A DNA stretch of 64,000 bases from a virus: the IMG/VR virus record IMGVR_UViG_3300025151_000016, one strand, 5' to 3'. Under the pieces are notes generated by a model, which did no database searches, had not been told where the DNA came from, and saw only the letters and a list, made by a program, of their open reading frames with translations. Below, one piece after another: positions 21,779-46,298 of this stretch (the stretch's first letter is position 1; each line of letters begins with the position of its first letter). The position numbers and the translations under genes were made by a program.

Positions 21779-21805
21779 CAAAAGGAGGGCTAACCGTGGC
21801 CCTCC
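21779..21805 (-). terminator. Rho-independent terminator
   Basis: GGAGGGC-loop-GCCCTCC-TTTT. Confidence 0.75.
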
Positions 21806-21837
21806 GCGTGCTTATTGAGTAGCAACCCTATACTAGT

Positions 21838-22236
21838 TTAGAATGAGAATGAAATACCTACTTCGATATCGCTCATTTCTTCAGCTTCTAGATCGTAACC
21901 TGTTTCAGCATAGACTTTGGAGTCCAGACCCCACATTGTCATGCCATACTCTGCACCGAAGTCTAGAGTTGGTAACTCATCATTGTTTAATGTAAATTCA
22001 TTATCATACAGAATGAAATCCATATCTGCTGAAAAAGCTACACCAGATGAGTGATCATATCCGATACCCGGTGTTAATGTAGCCACCATTGTTTCGTCAT
22101 TGATGTTGTAGCGGTTGTCTAATTCAGCACCTATTGAGATGCCAGTTGCTCCGATTTCAGCTGCTTCTGCTTCAGTCGTTGCCATGCAAGCTGTAAGTAG
22201 TAGTGCTGATGTTGCTGCTGCTGCTGCAAGTTTCAT
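21838..22236 (-). CDS. Small outer-membrane beta-barrel protein
   Basis: Signal peptide, alternating beta strands, C-terminal GISFSF beta-signal. Confidence 0.7.
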   Translation of the reverse strand: MKLAAAAATSALLLTACMATTEAEAAEIGATGISIGAELDNRYNINDETMVATLTPGIGYDHSSGVAFSADMDFILYDNEFTLNNDELPTLDFGAEYGMTMWGLDSKVYAETGYDLEAEEMSDIEVGISFSF

Positions 22237-22258
22237 TTAATTTTTCCCTTATTAAATT

Positions 22259-22492
22259 TTATTTACGATTCCAGATTTCATACAGAACCCAAACTGAGAT
22301 CAAACCCATGACGCCTTCAGCGCCGAGTCCAGCTAACATTGCTGTTACATTGTCAACTACACTCATACCTTCGGGCATGAATGGCATAGCACTTAGTCCT
22401 AGTATCTCTAGGATAATCGCTAATGCAGCAACACTAAGTCCTACATCAGCTAAGGCGCCTGCCCATGATTTCACTTTGTTTAAAGTTTCCAT
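22259..22492 (-). CDS. Small membrane protein
   Basis: Two hydrophobic helices; AAGGAG RBS. Confidence 0.7.
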   Translation of the reverse strand: METLNKVKSWAGALADVGLSVAALAIILEILGLSAMPFMPEGMSVVDNVTAMLAGLGAEGVMGLISVWVLYEIWNRK

Positions 22493-22511: not shown

Positions 22512-22647
22512 GGTACCACTTTTCTGTTGCTAAGCAAGTGGCCAGCTCCCTGTGATTATGCAGCTAGTGCAAATCCAGAAGGTGCAAAGTTATCGTTTGC
22601 ATTTATGTTTTATAGACTCAAATACCAGTCAATCCTATTTCACCCCC
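22512..22647 (-). ncRNA. ssrA: Two-piece tmRNA, coding piece (3' end approximate)
   Basis: 5' GGGGGTGAAATAGGATTGAC; tag ORF 22600-22556 = ANDNFAPSGFALAA*; 3' hairpin with GCAACAGAA. Confidence 0.92.
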
Positions 22648-22658
22648 ACAAAACCACA

Positions 22659-22850
22659 CTACTTGGAATCTAAAACTTCTTTGCATTTACCTGATGCATA
22701 AGTTTCGAACCAACGAGGAACAAAGGCATGTATGAAGCAAGCATATGCTGCTTTTTCCAACTGCCATGAAATCCACAAAGCTCGTTTGAAATGTTGCCAG
22801 CGTGTCATGCCAGCTTCTTCTACGTGTGATTTACATTTCTTACTAATCAT
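22659..22850 (-). CDS. 63-aa protein (DUF6356-like) inside the tmRNA intervening segment
   Basis: AAGGA RBS; H.EE.GMT.WQHF..A...CFIHAFVP.WFET.AS. Confidence 0.8.
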   Translation of the reverse strand: MISKKCKSHVEEAGMTRWQHFKRALWISWQLEKAAYACFIHAFVPRWFETYASGKCKEVLDSK

Positions 22851-22870
22851 GTTTTTCCTTAATGTGTTTT

Positions 22871-22923
22871 TGGTGGAGGTGCTGGGTTCTGCCCCCAGGT
22901 CCTGTATATCCTCTAACATCTAT
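22871..22923 (-). ncRNA. ssrA: Two-piece tmRNA, acceptor piece (5' end approximate)
   Basis: GGACCTGGGGGCAGAACCCAGCACCTCCACCA; CACCTCC pairs with GGGGGTG giving G3.U70. Confidence 0.92.
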
Positions 22924-22929
22924 GAGGTT

Positions 22930-22958
22930 ATTTAACCATATATCCCAGAGAAAGTAAA
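22930..22958 (-). promoter_or_regulatory. Promoter for tmRNA precursor
   Basis: TTTACT-N17-TTAAAT, also contains late-like TAAATA. Confidence 0.7.
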
Positions 22959-24143: not shown

Positions 24144-24151
24144 TATAAATA
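24144..24151 (+). promoter_or_regulatory. T4 late promoter for plus-strand operon
   Basis: TATAAATA 19 nt before ATG at 24171. Confidence 0.75.
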
Positions 24152-24170: not shown

Positions 24171-24653
24171 ATGATAGATCCAATAAGCGCGATCGGAATG
24201 GCGACAGCCGCGTATAATGGCATTAAAAAAGCTGTTAGTACGGGTAAAGAGTTGCATGATATGGCGGGTACGCTGCAGAAATGGGCTACATCTATGTCTG
24301 ACTTAGATTTTGCTCATAAGCAGGCTCAGAATCCTCCAATGTTTAAAAAAATGTTTGGCGCAAGTCAAATAGAACAAAACGCATTAGAAGTATGGGGCCA
24401 TAAGCAAAAGGCTAAAGAAATGCGTGAGGAAATGAAAACACATATTAGTTTTTATTATGGACCATCTGCTTGGGATGAGATTGTTCGTATAGAAGGTGAT
24501 ATGAGAAAGAAACGTAAAGAAGCTGTGTATGCAGCCGAAGAGCGTAAACAGTTAATATTAGAATGGTTAGTAGGAATCATTGTAGGTGCGGCTGTTCTTG
24601 GCATCATGATTTTAATAATCTGGATTATAGGTTCAACACAAGGGAAATGGTAA
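24171..24653 (+). CDS. Hypothetical protein with C-terminal TM helix
   Basis: MIDPISA start, RBS, late promoter. Confidence 0.8.
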   Translation: MIDPISAIGMATAAYNGIKKAVSTGKELHDMAGTLQKWATSMSDLDFAHKQAQNPPMFKKMFGASQIEQNALEVWGHKQKAKEMREEMKTHISFYYGPSAWDEIVRIEGDMRKKRKEAVYAAEERKQLILEWLVGIIVGAAVLGIMILIIWIIGSTQGKW

Positions 24654-24833
24654 ATGTGGGTATTGCTATGGGTACAGTTAATGGCAACACAAAATGTAAA
24701 TCACTTTCATATTGGTAATTATTCAAAAGAAGTAGACTGCCAGTCGGCTATGAGTGCCGCTGCTGTTTTAGTTACTAGTAAAAATGAAAGCGTTGCTTGC
24801 TTGTACGTAGATATTAATGACATTAGAAATTAG
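24654..24833 (+). CDS. 59-aa exported/membrane hypothetical protein (not in ORF track)
   Basis: MWVLLWVQL...YSKEVDC...SVAC; starts right after upstream stop. Confidence 0.7.
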   Translation: MWVLLWVQLMATQNVNHFHIGNYSKEVDCQSAMSAAAVLVTSKNESVACLYVDINDIRN

Positions 24834-45866: not shown

Positions 45867-46298
45867 TTATAGTTCACTCAACAATGTTTTAAGTTTCTTT
45901 TTGCTTTTGCCTCTGACTTTTGCTTTGCTAACATCGTTCATTGGCACTTCACCGCCTTCAGCTACCATCACTACTCCAAGCATACCCATTGTTGCGTGCG
46001 GTGTACAAACATACACATACACACCTGGTACATCGAAGGTAATGCTAACTTCTTTGTTGTTCTTACTTTTTCTTGGAATGTCCCATCCATCTGGTCCTGC
46101 AACAAATTCTACGTTGTGTCCTTTAGATGTTGGTACCCACGTGATTGTGTCACCTACGTCAATAGCGACAACATCTTCGCTGTACACCATCTTAGCACCA
46201 TCGTCACGTTTATTTAACATTTCGATTGTTACGTCTGCCGCGAATGCTGGAACAGACAATGAAGCCATAACGGCTACTGTAGATAAAAGTTTCTTCAT
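45867..46298 (-). CDS. Pseudoazurin (periplasmic blue copper protein)
   Basis: Signal peptide; EMLNK, GHNV, YVCTPH..MGM type-1 Cu ligands. Confidence 0.9.
   Translation of the reverse strand: MKKLLSTVAVMASLSVPAFAADVTIEMLNKRDDGAKMVYSEDVVAIDVGDTITWVPTSKGHNVEFVAGPDGWDIPRKSKNNKEVSITFDVPGVYVYVCTPHATMGMLGVVMVAEGGEVPMNDVSKAKVRGKSKKKLKTLLSEL

Follow-up and report, generated by a model that had tools for sequence, protein, structure and literature searches.

Can the segment that is discarded from a two-piece tmRNA serve as the place of a protein gene, and can the RNA and the protein both be functional? This question is raised by a locus in IMG/VR record IMGVR_UViG_3300025151_000016, a stretch of 64,000 nucleotides of viral DNA to which we refer as the window, in which a small open reading frame lies between the two pieces of a tmRNA gene. 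RNase P cleavage and 3′ trimming are the maturation steps of permuted tmRNA, and the intervening segment (IVS) that they remove would here contain a message.

A permuted two-piece tmRNA gene in a marine T4-like phage

The source of the window is an uncultured marine T4-like phage, as shown by matches to T4-like DNA polymerase, major head, portal and helicase proteins. By DNA polymerase, its nearest cultured relatives are the Kyanoviridae phage C48C1 (54.5%) and marine cyanomyophages. No permuted tmRNA is present in C48C1, the best DNA polymerase match, and blastn of the tmRNA locus against cultured phages gave no match. The locus itself is a permuted two-piece tmRNA gene of the alphaproteobacterial type, in which the acceptor piece, the IVS and the coding piece (from 22647) follow one another on the minus strand:

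22871-22923, minus strand: acceptor piece, with a 5′ inter-piece pairing segment, the T arm (loop GGCAGAA), the acceptor 3′ strand and an encoded CCA (Rfam RF04321 and RF01849; compensatory changes in the T and acceptor stems)
22881-22875, minus strand: acceptor 3′ strand, CACCUCC (sequence)
22874-22871, minus strand: discriminator A (22874) and CCA (22873-22871) (sequence)
22512-22647, minus strand: coding piece, with the acceptor 5′ strand GGGGGUG (containing G3), the D-loop, inter-piece pairing segments, the tag frame and a 3′ GCAACAGAA hairpin (Rfam)
22556-22600, minus strand: tag frame, ANDNFAPSGFALAA plus stop, with the resume codon at 22600 (sequence, Rfam)

Both Rfam models matched above their cut-offs (RF04321, 77.3 bits against 47; RF01849, 67.2 bits against 50), and the alignment treats the ORF, about 190 nt, as an insert within the acceptor-stem loop. 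An earlier reading of the letters alone (the sequence-only reading) had proposed a two-piece permuted gene with these boundaries and this tag, and a 7-bp acceptor stem with G3·U70 joining the halves; every one of these elements is confirmed. Of the two programs that it suggested as a check, Rfam recognized the gene and ARAGORN called no tmRNA gene here. The coding piece is very compact: G1 and the resume codon are about 47 nt apart, which leaves little room for pseudoknots.

The tag frame has a resume codon, a hydrophobic end in ...AA and a stop, and a search with the tag pattern found at least 119 viral contigs. G3·U70 was present in all of 359 sampled genes. Among 11 copies bearing a DUF6356 gene in the IVS, the acceptor stem, the T stem, the stem between the two pieces and the stem that closes the IVS all had compensatory changes on both sides (counts not corrected for relatedness), and the tag is intact among ORF-bearing copies. 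The folding z-score of the whole precursor (−1.2) was not significant. We conclude that the two-piece tmRNA gene is under selection and predict that it is a working one. Its type suggests an alphaproteobacterial host or donor, although Melnitz, a phage of OM43, also carries an alpha-type permuted tmRNA (PMC9004378).

A protein gene under selection inside the spacer

Between the CCA and the coding piece lie the following elements:

22648-22870, minus strand: IVS of 223 nt, a hairpin with a closing stem of about 10-12 bp stacked on the acceptor stem and the gene in its loop (Rfam, folding, covariation)
22856-22860, minus strand: ribosome binding site (RBS) AAGGA, 5 nt before the ATG and unpaired in the consensus fold (sequence)
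22659-22850, minus strand: DUF6356 (PF19883) gene of 63 codons, with its ATG at 22850 and stop at 22661-22659 (Pfam, dN/dS)

The presence inside the IVS of an RBS (22860-22856) and an intact 63-aa ORF resembling DUF6356, as first noticed in the sequence-only reading, is supported by a Pfam match at E 2.5e-12 (47.2 bits against a cut-off of 24.4). An AGGA or GGA motif occupies the place of the RBS in other IVS-located DUF6356 copies. Searches of IMG/VR and JGI metagenomes yielded 91 distinct DUF6356 genes; in 17 cases the gene follows a tmRNA CCA directly. A dN/dS survey of such ORF-in-loop copies, which had been suggested as a check, showed that the frame is kept: across the 17 distinct copies (110 pairs) the median dN/dS was 0.084 and the maximum 0.18, variable columns were distributed 20/9/48 over the three codon positions, and in-frame stops were absent, with 3-9 in each of the other two frames. 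The five closest IVS copies have the same IVS ends and dN/dS values of 0.07-0.15; because these ends are shared, the five probably diverged after insertion. Assembly error is unlikely, since a near-identical locus (L486) comes from a separate assembly. The spacer ORF is therefore considered a real protein gene maintained by selection, and its expression is predicted.

A longer reading of this gene was rejected. An 86-codon ORF can be drawn from an ATG at 22919 in the acceptor piece, but that start is ACG in L001 and L002, the leader is out of frame in L008 and L013, and free-standing homologues begin at the ATG of the 63-codon gene. Databases hold versions of 81-86 aa, in which gene callers have run the ORF into the acceptor piece.

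These observations bear on the possibility that one of the two elements is dead, either because insertion inactivated the tmRNA or because the ORF is an untranslated relic in a neutral spacer. The absence of an ARAGORN call would be in keeping with this, as would a precedent from Coxiella, in which an IVS ORF is apparently not expressed (PMC4990558). The low dN/dS among the closest IVS copies argues that the ORF is no relic, however, and compensatory changes in all tRNA-like stems, together with the intact tag, argue that the tmRNA of ORF-bearing copies is no wreck. We regard a dead element as highly improbable.

The spacer forms a hairpin continuous with the acceptor stem

The sequence-only reading had remarked that the ends of the IVS could extend the acceptor stem. 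These ends do pair, with covariation, in two arms:

22860-22870, minus strand: 5′ arm of the closing stem, AAAACACAUUA (consensus pairs, mutual information)
22648-22661, minus strand: 3′ arm of the closing stem (sequence, folding, consensus fold)

Consensus pairs join alignment columns 37-47 with 251-261, and changes on both sides occur at three of them. Among 233 viral IVSs, positions 2-10 of the stem were paired in 90-94%, and mutual information exceeded 1 bit at positions 5 and 7 (uncorrected for relatedness). A stem score of 7 or more was reached by 97% of long viral IVSs versus 44% of chimeric controls. By continuing the acceptor stem, the stem of about 10 bp would preserve the shape of the pre-tmRNA for tRNA-processing enzymes whatever the content of the loop. 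The UAG stop of the ORF opens the 3′ arm, where it pairs with UUA of the 5′ arm to form the innermost pairs of the stem, 11 nt before the RNase P site. Since a stop-like UGA or UAG is present in the 3′ arm of ORF-free IVSs too, the position of the stop within the stem needs no regulatory explanation.

An exchangeable slot for small genes

One search pattern was applied to viral contigs (100 IVSs) and to bacterial genomes (107 IVSs). The bacterial loci that it missed are mostly standard or short-IVS genes, and some of the IMG/VR contigs sampled may be prophage or host DNA. In this unbiased viral sample the IVSs had a median length of 69 nt, and 37 were at least 90 nt long; a single ORF covered at least 75% of the segment in 25 of these 37, against 6.9 expected from shuffles. 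About a quarter of the sampled viral permuted tmRNA genes thus have an ORF-filled IVS. The bacterial median was 29 nt, one IVS of the 107 reached 90 nt, and none was ORF-filled. Length-targeted IVS scans added further cargo families. Of 18 multi-member ORF groups, two or three of which are probably shadow frames of other cargos, 12 had pN/pS below 0.5; they include DUF6356 and about 11 other cargo families.

Cargo and tmRNA are not tied to one another. Across 79 tmRNA genes with the same tag, IVS length ranged from 5 to 459 nt, and 15 cargo changes are needed on the tmRNA tree. Identical arms flank a 229-nt IVS with an ORF in L348 and a 25-nt IVS in L627, nearly identical arms are found with and without cargo in L672 and L577, and tmRNAs 89-92% identical to that of the window have ORF-free IVSs of 29-57 nt. 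DUF6356 appears at 3 places on the tmRNA tree; a test did not reject a single origin for the IVS-located genes (AU p = 0.064), so this cargo may have been inserted repeatedly or only once. With ORF-free tmRNA alleles on one side and DUF6356 mostly free-standing on the other, the RNA and the gene can each do without the other. We conclude that the IVS serves aquatic phages as a general slot for exchangeable cargo, and ORF-filled IVSs are therefore common in phage metagenomes. Cargo comes, goes and is replaced, presumably through recombination within the conserved arms of the tmRNA.

The slot is also occupied in other ways. A distant DUF6356 lineage, probably an independent insertion of the family, fills a 152-nt IVS at L092:6414-6600 and reads 33 nt into the coding piece. 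DUF6356 is accompanied by a hydrophobic protein in IVSs of 443-459 nt in L018, L019 and L514, and two tandem genes occupy IVSs of 443-499 nt in L018 (2982-3424), L514 and L105. The commonest cargo in the length-targeted sample is a hydrophobic peptide of 38-44 aa, present in 54 IVSs of 159-294 nt (L167, L174-L287). The UGA of the closing stem serves as its stop codon, and many of these IVSs have an extra short, overlapping upstream ORF behind AAGGAG in the 5′ arm of the stem.

Among cultured phages, Melnitz (MZ577097, 46077-46260; L681:6078-6261) has an IVS of 142 nt (46077-46218) with a GGAG RBS and a 54-codon ORF (46096-46260) that is unannotated in GenBank and related to IVS cargos of the uncultured phages L135 and L244. 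This ORF runs on past the RNase P site and stops 42 nt into the coding piece, so that cleavage by RNase P would turn it into a non-stop message. Selection is less clear for this cargo family, with a group pN/pS of 0.74. The Melnitz record lacks locus tags 87 and 88. Unannotated permuted tmRNAs are also present in Sinorhizobium phage Phosso (L684; PV764938, 349596-350198), whose 410-nt IVS has no filling ORF and apparently holds nested hairpins, and, with IVSs of 93-111 nt, in Ruegeria phage V10, Phaeobacter phage MD18 and Mesorhizobium phage Cp1R7A-A1.

The DUF6356 cargo

DUF6356 is predicted to be a three-helix protein with high confidence (pLDDT 95). H9, H20, H41 and P45 are conserved, the last three invariantly. 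A PDB sequence search and a Foldseek search with the model gave no match, the best hit in a structure comparison (Z 5.6) was not meaningful, and the ESM Atlas returned DUF6356 clusters only. Pfam and PHROGs revealed no nuclease similarity in the cargo.

Most distinct DUF6356 genes (74 of 91) have no tmRNA around them, and free-standing copies that are 83-84% identical and sit in other gene contexts are nested among IVS copies on the tree. Of 151 genomes sampled from the class to which a Planktomarina genome belongs (Alphaproteobacteria), 28 carry a member of the family, and 20 of 29 alphaproteobacterial genes (L727-L755) are divergent from a regulator of the Lrp/AsnC family, a neighbour that hints at an amino-acid-responsive role. 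It is tempting, if rather doubtful, to picture the product as a small, histidine-containing, amphipathic membrane-associated protein that acts in an amino-acid-responsive process and was taken from alphaproteobacterial hosts. As far as can be told, its function is unrelated to tmRNA. Relatives of DUF6356 (42-46% identical) also exist in spindle-shaped archaeal viruses of Nitrosopumilaceae (H21 and H22; BK067784 and BK067785).

Transcription and surroundings of the locus

Two further features flank the tmRNA gene:

22930-22958, minus strand: putative promoter, with a −35-like TTTACT, 17 nt, and TTAAAT (read from the sequence)
21784-22492, minus strand: two downstream genes (77 aa and 132 aa) and the next terminator (21805-21784) (sequence)

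A promoter upstream of the acceptor piece had been part of the sequence-only reading, and this claim stands in part. TTTACT-17-TTAAAT (22958-22930) does not pass a sigma-70 scan, and it overlaps a match of only 6/8 to the T4 late motif TATAAATA; on the other hand, exact TATAAATA occurs at the same place in the relatives L008 and L013. Promoter-motif counts (38 of 61, against 35% in shuffled sequences) have an imprecise anchor and carry little weight, and no late-promoter motif was seen between the T arm and the RBS. A real promoter at this position is plausible.

No terminator was found between the tmRNA and the two downstream genes, so the primary transcript may be polycistronic and the two genes are possibly co-transcribed with the tmRNA. 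The same gene pair is found 3′ of the tmRNA in L018. Farther along, between 19043 and 21678, are three minus-strand genes with N-terminal hydrophobic segments, encoding proteins of 242 aa (with a Thr/Asn-rich repeat), 468 aa (acidic) and 192 aa (coiled-coil-like); the acidic protein had no PHROG match at E 1e-15. Two plus-strand genes lie at 24171-24833 in an otherwise minus-strand region, with exact TATAAATA upstream at 24144.

Discussion

How could one transcript yield both a tmRNA and a protein? We think it probable that the locus contains a working two-piece tmRNA whose discarded spacer is used as a slot for a passenger gene, the precursor being translated before processing destroys the spacer. 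The tmRNA precursor would very probably also serve as a messenger in that case. What the cargo gains is, most simply, likely to be a strong promoter, a place where insertion does no harm, and conserved sequence on either side for recombination.

From the layout of the gene, a single transcript would run from the acceptor piece through the IVS into the coding piece. Ribosomes could load at the RBS, 10 nt after the CCA and about 200 nt before the pairing partner of the acceptor piece is made, and would translate the ORF to its stop inside the IVS. Once the halves pair, RNase P would cut before G1 of the coding piece, as in established tRNA and tmRNA processing. Transcripts of permuted tmRNA genes are cut by tRNA-processing enzymes (PMC11915505). 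The resulting acceptor-plus-IVS intermediate would remain a complete message until 3′ processing back to the CCA, and, judging from the conserved determinants, the mature tmRNA would be charged with alanine and rescue ribosomes together with host SmpB. With the stop 11 nt short of the RNase P cut, a complete message would be present in the precursor as well as in the intermediate of acceptor piece and IVS. With the exception of the excised loop, any RNA containing the RBS and ORF would have the acceptor piece too. If these steps are correct, protein output would be tied to tmRNA synthesis and limited by maturation.

The excised loop is the centre of a different proposal, in which the whole IVS is cut out by RNase P and an endonuclease acting at the CCA, persists as a stem-closed mini-mRNA and is the main source of protein. 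The IVS does contain RBS, start and stop, both at this locus, where a released loop would be a complete message, and in 109 of 127 long ORF-filled cases, and the complementary IVS ends could protect such a loop. In the remaining 18 of the 127, however, the stop would be lost on excision. As the CCA is encoded, 3′-to-5′ trimming would suffice for maturation and would destroy the loop. The excised IVS of 23S rRNA is rapidly degraded (PMC4990558). A persistent mini-mRNA therefore seems to us very unlikely as the main messenger.

It is also possible that translation and maturation are coupled and that the coupling itself is selected. Initiating ribosomes would cover the 5′ arm of the closing stem and terminating ones would melt its 3′ arm, delaying maturation, failed translation would speed it, and the levels of tmRNA and cargo protein would be set against each other. 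Several features of the locus are compatible with such an arrangement. The AUG is 20 nt after the CCA and the stop is within the stem; ribosome footprints at start and stop would overlap both stem arms. Start codons in long ORF-filled IVSs cluster at 11-21 nt, with the exception of one large family at about 41, the RBS of this copy can pair with UCC just before the stop, and in the 18 of 127 IVSs whose stop lies beyond the RNase P site, processing gives a non-stop message. Yet this pairing of the RBS is not maintained across the DUF6356 copies, the stop-like triplets of the 3′ arm occur in ORF-free IVSs as well, and the cargos are unrelated and exchangeable. Close relatives without any ORF, whether with arms 89-92% identical or with identical arms, speak against obligatory gating, the strict form of the suggestion in the sequence-only reading that translating the loop could gate maturation. 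Ribosomes and processing are likely to compete kinetically to some degree, yet the data can be accounted for without selected gating, which we judge improbable.

A bolder version can be offered as speculation that we would not expect to hold: the pre-tmRNA would be a dual-function RNA in which a translation-versus-maturation switch sets the amounts of mature tmRNA and cargo protein, and where the stop lies beyond the RNase P site, as in Melnitz and L092, the tmRNA would tag the product of its own spacer in an arfA-like feedback.

With the passenger-slot reading, a well-catalogued RNA family acquires a new gene form, in which the discarded part of a stable-RNA precursor is a messenger, and aquatic phages use this spacer as an exchangeable slot for small genes between conserved recombination arms. 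There is also a blind spot in annotation. ARAGORN misses a tmRNA with a long spacer and gene callers start the ORF too early, within the acceptor piece (81-86 aa), or, conversely, the tmRNA is annotated and the ORF omitted, as in Melnitz; counts of phage tmRNAs and of small genes are probably too low in both cases. Such loci offer a natural setting in which to ask how a single transcript accommodates both translation and tRNA-type processing, and the cultured phage Melnitz is available as a test system.

Comparison with known systems

The locus shares with permuted alpha-type tmRNA (RF01849, RF04321; PMC11915505) the order of the pieces, an IVS between CCA and G1, the G3·U70 pair, an ANDN...LAA tag and the 3′ GCAACAGAA motif. 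It differs from the 107 bacterial permuted genes, with their median of 29 nt and no ORF-filled member, in having a protein-coding IVS of 223 nt. Permuted alphaproteobacterial tmRNA genes are reportedly (Mao, 2009) a hotspot for rickettsial palindromic elements. In a survey of 97,179 tmRNA sequences, a tRNA-Ala and a repetitive element were the only items noted inside an IVS (PMC11915505). The sequence-only reading knew of no description of an ORF in a tmRNA spacer, and we likewise found no report of a protein gene in a tmRNA IVS in the part of the literature that could be searched.

Marine T4-like phages with ssrA, namely Methylophilales phage Melnitz and pelagimyophages (PMC9004378), resemble the source of the window as T4-like marine myophages with a phage-borne permuted tmRNA. 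HTVC008M has a 49-nt IVS without an ORF, and the 142-nt IVS of Melnitz holds its unannotated 54-codon ORF of a family other than DUF6356; the paper on Melnitz does not mention the IVS (PMC9004378). The DUF6356 gene of the window is a regular member of PF19883, above the curated cut-off and with invariant H20, H41 and P45. The family is normally free-standing (74 of 91 in phages; 20 of 29 divergent from Lrp/AsnC in Alphaproteobacteria), and here it lies inside an IVS.

Group I introns with a homing endonuclease in the tmRNA T-loop (PMC11915505) likewise place a protein gene inside a tmRNA gene from which it is removed on maturation. In our locus the T-loop is intact, the site is a different one, splicing is not involved and the cargo has no nuclease similarity; no Rfam intron family matched the tmRNA locus.

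By analogy, the closest functional counterpart is the ORF-bearing IVS of 23S rRNA in Coxiella and Leptospira (S23p; PMC4990558), also a stem-closed insert in a stable-RNA precursor, with an ORF and a patchy spread. The 23S rRNA IVS is cut out without religation; at our locus the closing stem is observed and removal is expected. RNase III makes the cut in 23S rRNA and one protein family is involved, whereas tRNA-processing enzymes are expected to act here and many unrelated small genes are selected. The spacer, unlike the 23S IVS, is a normal part of a permuted gene, the host RNA is tmRNA and not rRNA, and the cargo is PF19883 and not S23p. In Coxiella, the ORF of the 23S IVS is in decay and seems not to be translated in vivo (PMC4990558); the DUF6356 ORF, in contrast, is not decaying. 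Alpha-type permuted tmRNA and two-piece tmRNA in phages (PMC9004378) were already known, and what this locus appears to add is a spacer filled by a protein gene.
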